Source of the DNA: Escherichia coli
GTDB taxonomy: Bacteria; Pseudomonadota; Gammaproteobacteria; Enterobacterales; Enterobacteriaceae
Assembly: GCF_003018235.1 (NCBI RefSeq)
Contig: NZ_CP027437.1
Length of the DNA: 64,000 nt
Direction: 5' to 3' (one strand)
The notes under the pieces were generated by a model. The model did not search any database, had not been told where the DNA came from, and saw only the letters and a list, made by a program, of their open reading frames with translations. Positions 57,885-64,000 of this stretch are shown one piece after another; positions within the stretch are counted from its first letter, which is position 1, and each line of letters starts with the position of its first letter. A program made the position numbers and the translations under genes.

Positions 57885-59180
57885 TTAATTTTTCATTGCT
57901 TCGTTATGGGGCATGGTTGGGGCAAACTCGCTTAACTGTGTATTTAACAAAGCTACCTGTGCATTATTGTTTTCAGACATCCATTTTCCGTATACCTGAA
58001 ATACCATTTGCGCATCTGCATGGCCCATCTGGTTTGCTATAAATGCCGGGTTAGCACCAGCTGTCAGCGACCAGCAGGCATAAGTATGTCTCGACTGATA
58101 TGATTTTCGATGGCGGAGTCCGGCACGTTTTATCGCTGCGTCCCACATCTGCCTTATTGAGTCAACGGTAAAATGGTCACCATAATTTTTTACTCTCGCT
58201 GACACTTCAGGTTGAAAAACAAAGGTGCATTTTTGTTTTTCTGTTCTGCCATACTCTCTGAGGTGAACATCAATGATATGCTCTTTGCTCAGTCTCGTTA
58301 ATGTCATCTGACTCCGGAGAGCGTCGATTGCTGGCTTAATAAGATGAATGACCCGATTGGTTCCCGCCTGTGTTTTTGGTACCGTGAAACGGTCTTTTGC
58401 TAAATTTCTCCTGATCATCATTGTTCCATTTTTCAGATCTATGTCCTCCCATCCAAGTGCACACAGCTCACCAGGGCGAACGCCAGTATAAACAGAAACA
58501 CACCATAAATTTTTTGCTTGCTGATTTCTGCACGCATCGATAAGACGGATAAATTCCTCCCGCGAAAGAGGATCCGGAATGGTTCTTGATTCCTTTAATG
58601 GCGAGATCCCCTTAAACGGATTATCTGGCAGGTAACCGTTATCAACACCAAACTGGAACACGGCGTTAAGATTTGTCATGTAATTATTTACAGTTACAGC
58701 CGATCTCCCTGGTTGTGTAACAATATAGTTACTTTTGGGGATCTGGTATCCAGTCAGTAGCTCTTTACGAACCTCCAGTAATTTTTCTTTATTAATCGAT
58801 GAGGCAAGATTTTTTTCACCGATTATGCTCAGGATATTTTTGATGACGGCACGGTATGTGTTGAGTGATGTTTTGGCGACTTCAGTTTCTTTCAGTGCCA
58901 GAAATTTTTCAGCCAGTTCTTTTATGGTTAAATCTTGTCGGGCCTCACCAAATTTTTCCAGATTGCGTGAGGAGGGAAACTGTTTTGCATAGTCGAAAAC
59001 ACCAGTTTTTATTGCGTAACAAACAGAGGAGCGTAGTTCACCTGCAACGCGCCTGTTTTTTGCTGTGTCAGGAACCCCCAGATTTTCCCTGACTCTTACG
59101 CCTTTATAAACAAACCAGATACGTAATTTCCATCCATGGTTTTCCACGCCTGTCGGATATTTCATTTCAACTTCTCTCAT
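57885..59180 (-). CDS. Phage tyrosine integrase (lambda Int family), apparently intact
   Basis: 431-aa ORF with C-terminal catalytic-domain residues consistent with tyrosine recombinases (R...HxxR...Y in ...SRHTYACWSL...); start could be M1 or M6. Confidence 0.85.
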   Translation of the reverse strand: MREVEMKYPTGVENHGWKLRIWFVYKGVRVRENLGVPDTAKNRRVAGELRSSVCYAIKTGVFDYAKQFPSSRNLEKFGEARQDLTIKELAEKFLALKETEVAKTSLNTYRAVIKNILSIIGEKNLASSINKEKLLEVRKELLTGYQIPKSNYIVTQPGRSAVTVNNYMTNLNAVFQFGVDNGYLPDNPFKGISPLKESRTIPDPLSREEFIRLIDACRNQQAKNLWCVSVYTGVRPGELCALGWEDIDLKNGTMMIRRNLAKDRFTVPKTQAGTNRVIHLIKPAIDALRSQMTLTRLSKEHIIDVHLREYGRTEKQKCTFVFQPEVSARVKNYGDHFTVDSIRQMWDAAIKRAGLRHRKSYQSRHTYACWSLTAGANPAFIANQMGHADAQMVFQVYGKWMSENNNAQVALLNTQLSEFAPTMPHNEAMKN

Positions 59181-59199: not shown

Positions 59200-59451
59200 T
59201 CAAGTAAGATGACGTCTTGGTCTCGCTGATGCCTGGCGCAAAATCCAGCGATCAATTTCTTCCAGGTTGTAAAAGCATGGACTGTTATCCCATGGCATAC
59301 CGTCATGAGCGACATGCTTATATTCCCTTCCTTCCATAAACGATTTTTCCCGGGCCTTTTTTAACGTACCTTTTTTTATTCCTTTCAGCGCAATTAACTG
59401 CTCTTCGGATACCCATTTGCCGGGAGAGACAATCATGATTACTTCGCTCAT
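59200..59451 (-). CDS. Putative excisionase / small DNA-binding protein
   Basis: 83-aa basic ORF immediately upstream of int in the usual xis position; no family match verified. Confidence 0.5.
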   Translation of the reverse strand: MSEVIMIVSPGKWVSEEQLIALKGIKKGTLKKAREKSFMEGREYKHVAHDGMPWDNSPCFYNLEEIDRWILRQASARPRRHLT

Positions 59452-59523: not shown

Positions 59524-61995
59524 TTAAGAATCAGCCTGACTCGGGATCAGTTTTTGCCAGATAACTGAAACGTATTTTGCCTGGTAACGGGCGTCATCAA
59601 GTGCATTATGGCGCTCACCTTCGAATGGAATAGCCGTTCTGGCATCGAAGTCTATGGCTTTCCCCAGCTCAACGATTGTGCGTACATCGCGATCGTTGTA
59701 GTAACGCCACGGGCAGGGGATCCCCTGCCGTTCGTATGAACGGCGCAAAATCGTGTTGTCGAAGTTGGCTCCATTTCCCCAAACCTGAACAAAAAATTCA
59801 CCGGAGTTTTCGTCGATAAATTCCCGCAATTGTAACAGTGCATCATCTAACGGGATTTCATCGGTCATAATGGCAGATTGCGCTTCGCGTGATTGCTTAA
59901 GCCACCATTTAATGGTGTCCCGATCAATGACTCCGCCAGCAGTTTCCAGATCGATAGTCTTACTAAATTCCGGTCCCATATCTCCGGTTTGCGGATCGAA
60001 AAATATTGCACCTATTGAGATGATCGGGGCATCAGGATTTTTTCCCATGGTTTCAAGGTCGATCATTAGATGGTCACACGTCCTGCTGGTGGATGTGATT
60101 TCGTGATGACCGTTCACCTTAATTGAGTGATCTGCCGTCTCGCCAGTTTCATTATCGCTATTGTGATGCTGATTGCCGCCAGTGTTCTCCTTGTGTGGAT
60201 GTTCAGCGCCTTCCATTTCCTCCGGATCATCTTCCTGAACTTCAACCTGATACTCTTCATCGAATGTTTCTTGGTATGTTGCGTCGCCCATCACCGCGCC
60301 ACAATCAGGGCAGTTGCCGCCGCCGGTCTGACCGCAGGCGGTGCAGACTTTTTCCACTTCCTGTTGCGCCACTGGTTCAGGCTGTTTCGTTTCTGGCTCG
60401 TTTTGTAACGCATTTGTGCTGTTTTGTTCCGCTTTTTGGTAGTTCCGTTCCGATTCATGCTGGTTCTGGTTCACAGAATCGCGGGTCTGGATCCCCTTAA
60501 CCCATTTCGGATCATTCGGGTCACTAATCCCTTCAACAAATTCACCACGTGATGCAGCAAGCAACTTATCGGCGTCAGGCTGGCTGATATTGGCTGCCTG
60601 CATAATTTTGTTTACTTCGTCAGCGGTAACTTTTATCGGCTCTGGTTGTTCTGAATCTTCAGCGGTATCTACATTTTGCGGTAAGCCCGTGTATGTGCCA
60701 TTTTTTCGGGCAAAATATTCTTCTTTTGTGATTTCAGTGGCGCCAGCAGCCAGTGCCTTATCCAGACCAGAAAGTTTGTTTGCGCGACCGTATTTTTCTC
60801 CGTCCTTATCTGCGAAGAGGAAATAGAACGGCCCCTCACGCTCTACAGATGGTTCAGCTTCCGGCGCGGTTTCATTTTTTGGGATATCAGATACCTCAGT
60901 TTCCACTGCATCAGTTTGTGTTTCTGATGACTGGAGAACATCAACAGTGCCCAGGTCTGTTTCTTCATTCTCAAACACGCCCTTTGTCGTCAGGTATTCG
61001 CAGATATATTTGTTCAGTGCTATGGGATCTTTGTGAATGTCGATCGGACGCTCACGGACAAGGCCAAAAATAGTCTGGCGGTCGTAGCGAAGGGCATCAG
61101 GCTGTTTGCGCATTGATGCCGAGATACGCTTCCAGTCTTCGCGGTCGTTGTCGATAACTTCTTTTTTTGCCCAGCGATGGATGCTGCCGTCAATGTTTCC
61201 GGCATCCACATCACCAGGCCAGAGAGCGTAGGCCAGTTCGTCATCCAGTGTTTTCCATGTCTGCTTGTATTCGCGATGAATGGCAGCAATGACCGGGCTG
61301 ATTTTTCCTGTTGAATTTTCAGTGTACTGTTGATTGGCTCTGGCGCGGGCGAGATCAACAACAGACGTGTATTTTCCGGTTTCCTTGCGTTCACCTTCGC
61401 GACGTTTTTTCCAGATGCGCATCTCTGCCTGAATTTCGGGCCATTTAGCACCAGGAATACATTTATGCTTAACCCACCCAATGGCGTGCAACTTAAGCTC
61501 CGGATACATGGCGTTAACTTCTGGCATTTTCATCAACGCTTCAACGATATGTCCGTCGAATGTTGCCATGTCTTCCTGCAACAATTCCTGTGCGCTAATA
61601 ACCATATCAACGGTGATGTTTTCACATGTGTCGAACTTAACCATGACAGCGTTCTGTACTTCAGGGGCCAGCTTGTCAAAAGTGACGTTCATCGGATCGG
61701 ATTCAGTCTCAACCGGGACAAAAGAAGCAGACTCCTCATCCCAGCGGTTTTCCTGCATATATTCAGCATCCCATGAATCGAGGGCAGGGCGGGGTATGCC
61801 AGGTTTATCCTCGCAGACAATAAATTTATAAGCGCAGTCCTGAGCAGCCGGATAATGTTCCAGGAACTGCCAGTGAAATTTTGCTCGAGCACGGCGTTCG
61901 TCGCCAGCTTCAATGGCTGTGGCTACAGCCACAGCGCCTTCTTCCCTTGTTGCCAGTTCGTCAGGAATAGCGGCGCAAATAAAGACTTTACTCAT
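59524..61995 (-). CDS. Prophage large exonuclease-like protein with C-terminal DnaQ-like DEDDh 3'-5' exonuclease domain and a central CxxC-x9-CxxC zinc-ribbon motif
   Basis: 823-aa ORF; C-terminus carries motifs DLET, WGNGANFDN and HNALDDA; middle carries CTACGQTGGGNCPDCG; acidic low-complexity linker. Confidence 0.65.
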   Translation of the reverse strand: MSKVFICAAIPDELATREEGAVAVATAIEAGDERRARAKFHWQFLEHYPAAQDCAYKFIVCEDKPGIPRPALDSWDAEYMQENRWDEESASFVPVETESDPMNVTFDKLAPEVQNAVMVKFDTCENITVDMVISAQELLQEDMATFDGHIVEALMKMPEVNAMYPELKLHAIGWVKHKCIPGAKWPEIQAEMRIWKKRREGERKETGKYTSVVDLARARANQQYTENSTGKISPVIAAIHREYKQTWKTLDDELAYALWPGDVDAGNIDGSIHRWAKKEVIDNDREDWKRISASMRKQPDALRYDRQTIFGLVRERPIDIHKDPIALNKYICEYLTTKGVFENEETDLGTVDVLQSSETQTDAVETEVSDIPKNETAPEAEPSVEREGPFYFLFADKDGEKYGRANKLSGLDKALAAGATEITKEEYFARKNGTYTGLPQNVDTAEDSEQPEPIKVTADEVNKIMQAANISQPDADKLLAASRGEFVEGISDPNDPKWVKGIQTRDSVNQNQHESERNYQKAEQNSTNALQNEPETKQPEPVAQQEVEKVCTACGQTGGGNCPDCGAVMGDATYQETFDEEYQVEVQEDDPEEMEGAEHPHKENTGGNQHHNSDNETGETADHSIKVNGHHEITSTSRTCDHLMIDLETMGKNPDAPIISIGAIFFDPQTGDMGPEFSKTIDLETAGGVIDRDTIKWWLKQSREAQSAIMTDEIPLDDALLQLREFIDENSGEFFVQVWGNGANFDNTILRRSYERQGIPCPWRYYNDRDVRTIVELGKAIDFDARTAIPFEGERHNALDDARYQAKYVSVIWQKLIPSQADS

Positions 61996-62088
61996 TTTGT
62001 TTTAACCTCATGACAGATTTAAGGATGAACAAATCCCTGCTATTGCTGGCATATAAGAATGAAACCGGATATTTATTACGGAACTGTT

Positions 62089-62280
62089 TTAAAGACCTGC
62101 CGGGATTTCGATATTATCCTGGTGAATAACTTTATCGACCGGGTAACAGTTACCGGGAATTTTCTGTTCGGTTGCTGCAGTCATACACTCCTGTATTGTC
62201 CTGTGAACACTGACTGCAATATCAACTGGCTCTCCGGAAACAAGAAAAACTGTCAGAACAAGCGCAAATGCTGAATTCAT
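62089..62280 (-). CDS. Hypothetical small prophage protein with hydrophobic N-terminus
   Basis: 63 aa from the internal Met (MNSAFALVLTVFLVSGEP...); reverse-complement ATG at 62278-62280 overlaps the upstream ORF stop (ATGA). Confidence 0.35.
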   Translation of the reverse strand: MNSAFALVLTVFLVSGEPVDIAVSVHRTIQECMTAATEQKIPGNCYPVDKVIHQDNIEIPAGL

Positions 62281-62465
62281 TGTGCACATCCTTTTGGCAT
62301 CAGACGTAAACGAGCCAGCATTGAAACAATGCATATTTTATTTAATAGCTCCCGTTCTTGTTTTCTCTTGTTAATGGCATCTTCAGTAAATACAGGGTTA
62401 CTGATAGTGACACCAATTTCAAAACAACCTTCAGACGTATTAACGTTTGGTAATAACGTTTTCAT
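62277..62465 (-). CDS. Hypothetical small prophage protein
   Basis: 62 aa from the Met of MKTLLPNVNTSEGCFEIG...; GAGGA Shine-Dalgarno 7 nt upstream; translationally coupled to the downstream small ORF. Confidence 0.35.
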   Translation of the reverse strand: MKTLLPNVNTSEGCFEIGVTISNPVFTEDAINKRKQERELLNKICIVSMLARLRLMPKGCAQ

Positions 62466-62636
62466 TATCGCGTCCTCAACAATGAATTTTGTGATGCAGT
62501 GCCTGGTGCCTCCAGGTGACGTTAACCAGTTAACAATTAACGCCGGATACAGAGAATCCACCCATAACACTGTTTTTGGTTTTAACTGTTCCGCGTGCGC
62601 TTAGCCGCATTCACCGCATCACAAAACTCACTTTAA

Positions 62637-64000
<1,364 letters not shown>

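Follow-up and report, generated by a model that had tools for sequence, protein, structure and literature searches.

Two very short open reading frames on the minus strand of an Escherichia coli contig, one running into the other and both lying beside an insertion sequence, raise the question of what they encode and whether, in their present position, they can still be expressed. The preliminary description of the window (the whole 64,000-nucleotide stretch of DNA analyzed here) took them for a translationally coupled pair of unknown function, with a cluster of TTAAC repeats upstream that could be an operator. We are highly confident of another reading, in which the pair is dicB and ydfD of a Qin-like prophage, the insertion sequence IS100 separates the genes from their promoter dicBp, leaving a copy that has most likely escaped DicA control and is expressed poorly or not at all, and the TTAAC repeats are one stem of an RNA structure. 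The genes themselves are already known; as genes of cryptic prophages, dicB, ydfD, and dicF have entered the textbooks, and most E. coli genomes carry them. The positions of all features are collected in Table 1.

Table 1. Features of the dicF-dicB-ydfD region and its surroundings, with positions in the window
Feature	Position	Strand	Basis
Prophage integrase	57885-59180	minus	ORF list; synteny with L001, L002, and K-12
Excisionase-like gene	59200-59451	minus	ORF list; synteny with L001, L002, and K-12
Exonuclease, 823 aa	59524-61995	minus	Pfam PF16473, Rv2179c-like 3'-5' exoribonuclease domain, E 2.3e-67
ydfD, 63-aa lysis protein YdfD (DUF1482)	62089-62280	minus	Pfam; K-12 near-identity
dicB, 62-aa cell-division inhibitor DicB	62277-62465	minus	Pfam, NCBIfam; K-12 identity
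In-frame 5' extension of the dicB ORF (GTG at 62570, 97 aa in total)	62466-62570	minus	ORF list
Structured dicF-dicB spacer: STnc100-like domain, long outer helix	62433-62642	minus	Sub-threshold Rfam RF02076
Two-hairpin RNA core of the dicB leader	62495-62547	minus	Covariance model R1, covariation, fold
Hairpin 2 of the core, CCUGG-AGGCA-CCAGG	62502-62516	minus	Fold
Stem I of the core, containing the TTAAC repeats	62518-62544	minus	Covariation, fold
DicF small RNA including terminator hairpin	62640-62691	minus	Rfam RF00039
Remaining 3' arm of the DicF-precursor hairpin	62822-62846	minus	Inferred 5' end of the 190-nt form; 5' arm displaced by IS100
IS100 (IS21 family)	62847-64000, continuing past the window end	+	Left end TGTCACGAACGG; NCBIfam NF033546, istA of strain YJ6

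Profile searches, which the preliminary description had proposed as a check, matched both ORFs to named families over their full length. DicB matches Pfam PF05358 along residues 1–62 of 62 (E 1.9e-40; 136.8 bits against a cut-off of 27) as well as the NCBIfam model NF049927, "cell division inhibition protein DicB" (132.8 bits; cut-off 100), and 62 of its 62 residues (100%) are identical to those of E. coli K-12 DicB, b1575. YdfD matches Pfam PF07358 (DUF1482; E 1.5e-25; 89.3 bits against a gathering score of 25), has no NCBIfam model, and shares 61 of 63 residues (97%) with K-12 b1576, the differences being V6A and M29I. In homologous loci the RefSeq names are "ydfD: lysis protein YdfD," "dicB: cell division inhibition protein DicB," and, for the neighboring gene, "exonuclease." PHROGs holds full-length families for both proteins (PHROG 1092 for YdfD) under the label "unknown function," and searches of PADLOC and the PDB with DicB and YdfD gave no match. 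The description of the pair as being of unknown function is nevertheless superseded by the curated families and by the identity, complete or nearly so, to characterized K-12 proteins. On the basis of these comparisons, we assign the ORFs as dicB and ydfD, which are the distal protein-coding genes in the dicBF operon of a lambdoid prophage resembling Qin.

The two ORFs lie on the minus strand as first described, with a four-base overlap at 62277–62280 (tcat on the plus strand, ATGA on the minus strand) in which the ATG of ydfD overlaps the TGA of dicB. Each gene has a Shine-Dalgarno sequence of its own, GAGGA at 62473–62477 for dicB and AAGGA for ydfD. Because the stop and start codons overlap, we infer that translation of the two genes is coupled. 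The end originally given for the pair, 62570, is the GTG of the longer in-frame version of the dicB ORF. This extended form is probably not translated: the Pfam and NCBIfam models of DicB span only the shorter form, and the extension overlaps the RNA core of the structured leader that is considered below. An in-phase internal start is reportedly used for DicB translation, as Cam et al. are said to have found in 1988. The N terminus of YdfD, MNSAFALVLTVFLVSG, is as hydrophobic as had been noticed, with a mean Kyte-Doolittle value of about 2.0 over residues 1–17 that falls to about 0 by residue 25.

What the two proteins do is known from K-12. Through its binding to MinC, DicB delivers that protein to the septum, with the result that FtsZ is depolymerized and division is blocked; it also inhibits the inner-membrane proteins ManYZ and thereby excludes phages that inject their DNA through ManYZ (PMC10448788). 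The identical protein encoded in the window would be expected to have both activities, MinC-dependent inhibition of division and ManYZ-dependent exclusion. Expression of K-12 YdfD causes rapid lysis of nearly all cells, and this lysis depends on cell division, being prevented by co-expression of DicB or SulA (PMC8835842). The same paper, the single source on this point, reports that YdfD binds and inhibits IspG of the MEP isoprenoid pathway and that overexpression of ispG, or the IspG product, rescues the cells. The YdfD of the window would be expected to share the division-dependent lysis and IspG binding reported for its K-12 counterpart (PMC8835842), although V6A and M29I may alter its activity. 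The small RNA DicF, for its part, has ftsZ mRNA and several metabolic mRNAs as its base-pairing partners (PMC10448788). The early guess that genes at this position would serve host killing, superinfection exclusion, or anti-defense came close, with DicB as a division inhibitor and exclusion factor and YdfD as a lysis protein (PMC10448788, PMC8835842).

YdfD resembles the single-gene lysis proteins (phiX174 E, Q-beta A2, LysM) in that it is small and blocks a step of envelope synthesis instead of degrading the wall (PMC8835842). It differs from them in its reported target, which is IspG of isoprenoid synthesis and not MraY, MurA, or MurJ, and in its setting, as it is encoded in the early-left operon of a tailed phage equipped with a holin-endolysin cassette as well.

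The surroundings of the pair agree with this assignment. DicF, on the same strand, 175 nt upstream of dicB and in a gene order that agrees with K-12, matches Rfam RF00039 over model positions 1–52 of 52 (72.5 bits; gathering score 48) and is the sole Rfam family to reach threshold anywhere in the window. Downstream of ydfD lie the exonuclease gene, an excisionase-like gene, and the integrase gene. The latter two mark the prophage end, and the homologous loci adjoin rspB at this point; the order int-xis-exo-ydfD-dicB beside rspB is common to K-12 and to two near-identical intact loci, L001 and L002. In the uninterrupted versions of the region, L001 and K-12 Qin, the full order is a dicA-like repressor gene, ydfA, ydfB, (ydfC), dicF, dicB, ydfD, exonuclease, xis, int, and rspB. 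The region in the window is therefore the 3' part of a dicBF operon in a Qin-like lambdoid prophage. It shares with the K-12 Qin operon (ydfABC-dicF-dicB-ydfD-ydfE; b1571–b1577) the order dicF, dicB, ydfD, exonuclease, (xis), int, the same ATGA overlap, and DNA that is 99.3% identical over 1.6 kb. The two copies differ in that ydfE is cut by an IS2 remnant in K-12, whereas the exonuclease of the window is the intact counterpart of that pseudogene, and in that IS100 occupies the ydfC-dicF spacer of the window copy, so that dicF-dicB-ydfD is no longer adjoined by ydfABC, dicA, and dicBp, none of which is seen in the window. The locus is common: at least 80% of a query spanning 61900–62930 was found by megablast in 3,769 of 5,426 complete E. 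coli genomes, and the dicB-ydfD pair is also present in the sequenced phages Tritos, HannyBb, mEp460, and PPompW, with a corresponding gene order in Tritos, mEp460, and PPompW.

The insertion sequence noted beside the pair is IS100, a member of the IS21 family. Its istA (62933–63955) matches NCBIfam NF033546 with 283.6 bits (cut-off 160) and differs at 8 of 1023 nt from the annotated IS100 istA of strain YJ6. A TGG-to-TGA change at codon 271 (63743–63745) truncates IstA to 270 of 340 residues. The gene is read from the strand opposite to dicF-dicB-ydfD. Because the window ends inside IS100, only its left end is visible, with the junction at 62847/62848, where homology to intact loci stops. The insertion site, equivalent to coordinate 4228 of the K-12 locus, L003, falls between ydfC and dicF, and about 155 nt separate it from the 5' end of DicF downstream. 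The exact junction between IS100 and prophage had no single-piece match in the 5,426 complete E. coli genomes and none (0) in the GTDB representative genomes. In strain YJ6, an IS100 is also found nearby but with another junction, followed by an IS2 pseudogene.

In intact prophages, the operon is transcribed as ydfABC-dicF-dicB-ydfD from dicBp, a promoter upstream of ydfA that resembles lambda PL. This promoter is repressed by DicA, and the repression is relieved by the antirepressor Rem (PMC10448788). The transcripts detected are ydfABC-dicF of 1,146 nt and ydfABC-dicFB-ydfD of 1,608 nt, and DicF is processed by RNase III to a 190-nt form and by RNase E to a 53-nt form (PMC10448788). Stationary phase, urea, and heat induce the intact operon. 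IS100 separates dicF-dicB-ydfD from dicBp, the only promoter with experimental support. At the insertion spot, the intact locus L001 is predicted to fold into a hairpin of about 24 bp (−38.3 kcal/mol; z −4.2), and the insertion point is in the apical part of this hairpin. The published length of the 190-nt DicF precursor (PMC10448788) would place its 5' end at about 62829, within the 3' arm of the hairpin. According to this model, IS100 splits the hairpin that carries the putative RNase III processing site and pulls its two arms apart. Because IS100 parts the genes from dicBp and would split this hairpin, we consider it most likely that the copy in the window is uncoupled from DicA control and is poorly expressed or largely silent. 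The locus is a natural example of toxic prophage genes that an insertion sequence has severed from the promoter through which a repressor controls them. Such an insertion is one route by which the toxins of cryptic prophages could be disarmed with their coding sequences intact.

A different outcome of the same insertion is that DicA control was removed without silencing the genes, so that the pair is still expressed from an internal promoter in the dicF-dicB region or from the end of IS100. One earlier study, as cited in PMC10448788, proposed a second promoter upstream of dicB, and KilS, the small RNA homologous to DicF by position in the Rac prophage, is reportedly transcribed from a start of its own. 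Some residual expression independent of dicBp may for these two reasons occur. It is also the case that dicB is intact and 100% conserved and that ydfD is intact. However, primer extension and Northern analysis detected no additional promoter within the operon (PMC10448788), and a consensus scan for sigma-70-like sites on the minus strand found none within 61900–63000, the left end of IS100 included. Unregulated expression of DicB and YdfD is, moreover, toxic. Continued expression of the pair therefore seems to us rather unlikely, and we favor a copy that is largely silent.

The TTAAC cluster is real. The string cgttaaccagttaacaattaacg is found at 62520–62542, slightly narrower than the interval of about 62519–62545 first given for it, 54–77 nt upstream of the dicB ATG and within the transcribed dicF-dicB spacer. 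The 64-kb window has a single site with three TTAAC copies so spaced, whereas 0 of 100 shuffles that preserve dinucleotides contain one, and their presence is not a chance occurrence. An operator here would place two uncharacterized small proteins under a repeat immediately upstream of them. The ORFs, their overlap, and the cluster all exist as this would require, GTTAAC is palindromic like many operator half-sites, and the PHROGs labels for both families would fit. Against it stand the characterized K-12 proteins to which the products correspond, the position of the cluster inside a leader that is transcribed and around which no promoter-like site is found (the minus-strand scan described above), and the location of the supported promoter, which in intact loci is about 1 kb upstream of the cluster.

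A further argument comes from RNA structure. The dicF-dicB spacer folds with a z-score of −5.8 relative to shuffles, and the minimum-energy fold of the leader places a 10-bp hairpin over the TTAAC cluster, followed by hairpin 2. Close relatives are uninformative about covariation in this fold. The structured spacer segment is 98–99% identical in K-12, mEp460, PPompW, and Tritos, whose leaders show only three one-sided changes, all of them pair-preserving, and the TTAAC cluster is unchanged in all 29 distinct leaders from 80 viral dicB loci. A wider search scanned viral contigs for hairpin 2 with its middle pair left free and found the pattern in at least 120 of them. Directly 5' of hairpin 2 there is always a hairpin, the arm sequences of which vary while their complementarity stays. 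A stem I of at least 6 contiguous bp closing at a fixed base is present in 70 of 102 distinct instances compared with about 4% of shuffles, and 30 distinct arm sequences are represented among the stem I instances.

RNAalifold, when applied to an ungapped alignment of 32 cores, recovered hairpin 2 only, as the loop lengths of stem I differ between instances. It was replaced by the fixed-anchor stem test against shuffles just described, by a single-geometry alignment, and by a covariance model. The single-geometry alignment, in which the sequences were chosen for their ability to pair, has changes on both sides in 6 of 7 stem I pairs and pairing in 98.8% of cells, and its score is reached by 0 of 500 shuffles. 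The covariance model, R1, was built from core sites in viral contigs without the window or any TTAAC-type sequence. It nonetheless finds one site only in the window, the core listed in Table 1 (34 bits; E 7.5e-7), and its hits elsewhere include the corresponding positions of K-12 Qin, mEp460, PPompW, and Tritos.

The same core is present in the Rac prophage of K-12, where it lies 35 nt upstream of kilR, between the annotated small RNA KilS and kilR. The Rac and Qin leaders align, and their stems I differ by compensatory changes (CGGCGTTAA to CGACTGTAA in one arm; TTAACG to TTGCAG in the other). Rac retains only the GTTAAC of the loop and thus one TTAAC word out of three, yet base pairing is kept. 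Together with the roughly 30 different arm sequences found across phages, the Rac leader indicates that it is the pairing that is conserved and not the TTAAC words, and for this reason we interpret the cluster as stem I of a conserved RNA core in the transcribed dicB leader and not as a DNA operator. Of the original proposal, then, the repeats stand and their role as an operator does not; a repeat-type operator controlling uncharacterized genes is largely refuted and, in our judgment, very improbable.

The leader also resembles a known family of small RNAs. It aligns with Rfam RF02076, STnc100, over model positions 1–206 with 34.1 bits (E 1e-4), a score below the gathering threshold of 47, so that STnc100 was absent at this position from the gathering-threshold Rfam scan of the window. 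The leader has, however, the exact conserved two-hairpin core pattern of STnc100. Related viral contigs contain 22 STnc100 matches with scores of 57–165 bits, and most core instances in the viral contigs score as genuine STnc100, often in arrays with tRNAs and isrI. STnc100 and PasD, which have been described as Hfq-associated prophage small RNAs, share with the dicB leader an invariant hairpin, CACC-GGG/UGG-AGGCA-CCC/CCA-GGCAC, and, 5' of it, a stem that varies in sequence but keeps its pairing; they have a similar outer helix and likewise reside in lambdoid prophages. They differ in what follows, which is a seed region and terminator in STnc100 and PasD but a Shine-Dalgarno sequence and a protein gene in the dicB leader. 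Their locations are also unlike that of the leader, STnc100 typically being found in tRNA/isrI arrays and PasD near Q (preprint). The STnc100 and PasD literature that we examined makes no mention of dicF, dicB, or kilR. A literal search of papers for the core sequence returned nothing for a 17-mer and, for an 11-mer, irrelevant eukaryotic primers only.

What the core does upstream of dicB is a matter for a more tentative proposal. In other phages, it is followed by genes for DicB, KilR, a P21-type holin, or several small hydrophobic ORFs, although for 95 of the 135 instances the next 130 nt contain no ORF. We suggest, as a possibility somewhat short of even, that the dicF-dicB spacer is a conserved cis-acting RNA domain that gates the downstream toxic gene at the level of processing, stability, or translation. 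The candidate parts of such a gate would be the invariant hairpin CACC-NGG-AGGCA-CCN-GGCAC, the covarying stem I, and the long outer helix. The same domain would then stand before Rac kilR, P21-type holins, and small membrane proteins, with its terminator-ended form corresponding to the STnc100/PasD small RNAs, and DicF-dicB and KilS-kilR could represent two versions of one module composed of a small RNA, a gate, and a division inhibitor. One way in which the leader might act is occlusion of the Shine-Dalgarno sequence. The predicted fold hides that of dicB (probability of being unpaired near 0) but not that of Rac kilR, and because the latter stays exposed, we regard occlusion as a weak possibility only. 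If the core does regulate expression of the toxic gene, prophage division inhibitors would be controlled post-transcriptionally as well, and there would be a first hypothesis for what the uncharacterized STnc100/PasD small RNAs do.

The comparison with Rac extends beyond the RNA. Lambda Kil and Rac KilR are prophage inhibitors of FtsZ encoded in early-left operons and, like DicB, are small, toxic division inhibitors whose PL-like promoter is controlled by a repressor. The upstream layout of dicB is also found at Rac kilR, where a small RNA (KilS) and then a homologous structured leader core precede the gene. The proteins themselves have no sequence similarity to DicB, and KilR is without a Pfam match. 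KilR is named simply an inhibitor of FtsZ in RefSeq, whereas DicB, according to the literature, acts through MinC.

A pair of neighboring stem-loops within an early-left operon of PL type is also reminiscent of the put sites of phage HK022, and the leader element could on that account be taken for a put-type antiterminator RNA that binds RNA polymerase. The likeness, to which a lambdoid phage lacking an obvious N gene could be added, is superficial. The HK022 genome lacks the invariant hairpin, its best match having 5 mismatches in 20 and lying in a tail gene; model R1 has no match in HK022; and the putL sequence (supplement of PMC9378689) is unrelated to the core. The element of the window is, in addition, downstream of the DicF terminator and not upstream of it. 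Membership in the HK022 put group is ruled out by the first three of these observations, and we give a put-type antiterminator very little credence.

The phage PPompW provides a more distant view of both the leader and the genes. Its 235-nt leader is 98% identical to that of the window compared with 69% nucleotide identity for dicB, a difference that may stem either from constraint acting on the RNA or from the boundary of a recombination event. Its DicB is 61% identical at the protein level, with the 62-residue length and the four-base start/stop overlap kept, and dN/dS for dicB in this comparison is about 0.45. Conservation as coding sequence, the lack of which the preliminary description had named as a refutation, is thus observed, and together with the family matches it points to dicB and ydfD being real coding genes. 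That the two are chance open frames without protein product, an idea prompted by their shortness and by the antisense ORFs of similar length that overlap them, is already refuted by their full-length matches to curated families, by the preserved length and overlap, by the dN/dS value, and by the experimental work on both proteins, leaving it a negligible probability. The PPompW version of YdfD is one residue shorter and begins with GTG.

The leader of dicB, the spacer between the small RNA gene dicF and dicB, carries a two-hairpin RNA core that we find in at least 120 viral contigs. The core begins with stem I, which is variable in sequence, and continues into an invariant hairpin of the form CACC-NGG-AGGCA-CCN-GGCAC. 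Covariation in stem I among the core instances is strong. Most of these instances score as STnc100, the prophage small RNA family of Rfam, and tRNAs and isrI often lie in the same arrays; the type of core present in the dicB leader falls below the Rfam threshold for this family.

Where an ORF lies within 130 nt downstream of the core in the viral loci, it often encodes a small toxic or membrane protein. These small proteins are DicB, KilR, holin S of the P21 type, and hydrophobic peptides of 35–80 residues that match no family. No ORF was found within 130 nt of the core in 95 of the 135 instances, and some of these 95 are closed by terminator-like hairpins, which suggests that those with such ends are stand-alone small RNAs.

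Locations of the RNA core and of the gene downstream of ydfD
Feature	Location	Strand
Two-hairpin RNA core of the dicB leader	window 62495-62547; viral counterparts, L087-L206 (strand given for the window)	(-)
Same core in K-12 Rac	L208 4265-4317; NC_000913.3 about 1418264-1418316	(-)
Core with downstream region inspected	viral loci L090, L092, L098, L106, L110, L201 and others	
Intact 823-aa protein gene, downstream of ydfD	window 59524-61995	(-)

In the Rac prophage of K-12, the same core sits 35 nt upstream of kilR, with the annotated small RNA KilS on its other side. Homology between the kilS-to-kilR leader of Rac and the dicF-to-dicB leader of Qin begins at the small RNA terminator, whereas the 5' (seed) halves of KilS and DicF are unlike. 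Because the leaders are homologous, two independently characterized prophage inhibitors of FtsZ share one layout of small RNA, structured leader, and toxin.

Comparison with phage PPompW (L085) shows 98% identity across noncoding DicF plus leader (window 62466-62700; L085 2266-2500). This conservation falls exactly at the start codon of dicB, which is itself 69% identical in nucleotide sequence and 61% identical in protein sequence. The step could mean that the RNA is strongly constrained, or it could mark a boundary of mosaic recombination.

Upstream of dicF, IS100 interrupts a hairpin of ~24 bp within its apical portion (window 62822-62848; 6915-7010 in L001, an uninterrupted E. coli prophage locus). 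The 3' arm of this hairpin includes the point at which the 190-nt DicF precursor is inferred to begin after cleavage by RNase III. The insertion thus splits the processing substrate in addition to removing the promoter. Compared with the intact copy of strain YJ6, istA of this IS100 carries a TGG-to-TGA nonsense mutation at codon 271 (63743-63745), leaving a product of 270 of 340 residues, and the element probably cannot make full-length transposase of its own.

This end of the prophage is a repeated target of insertion sequences. Strain YJ6 (L002 6955-10363) also has IS100 in the ydfC-dicF region, at a different junction, flanked by nonphage sequence and then an IS2 transposase pseudogene, and ydfE of K-12 Qin contains an IS2 remnant. 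K-12 ydfE is a truncated pseudogene, whereas its counterpart here is intact and encodes a protein with a C-terminal Rv2179c-like 3'-5' exoribonuclease domain and, in its middle part, partial, subthreshold similarity to exodeoxyribonuclease VIII.
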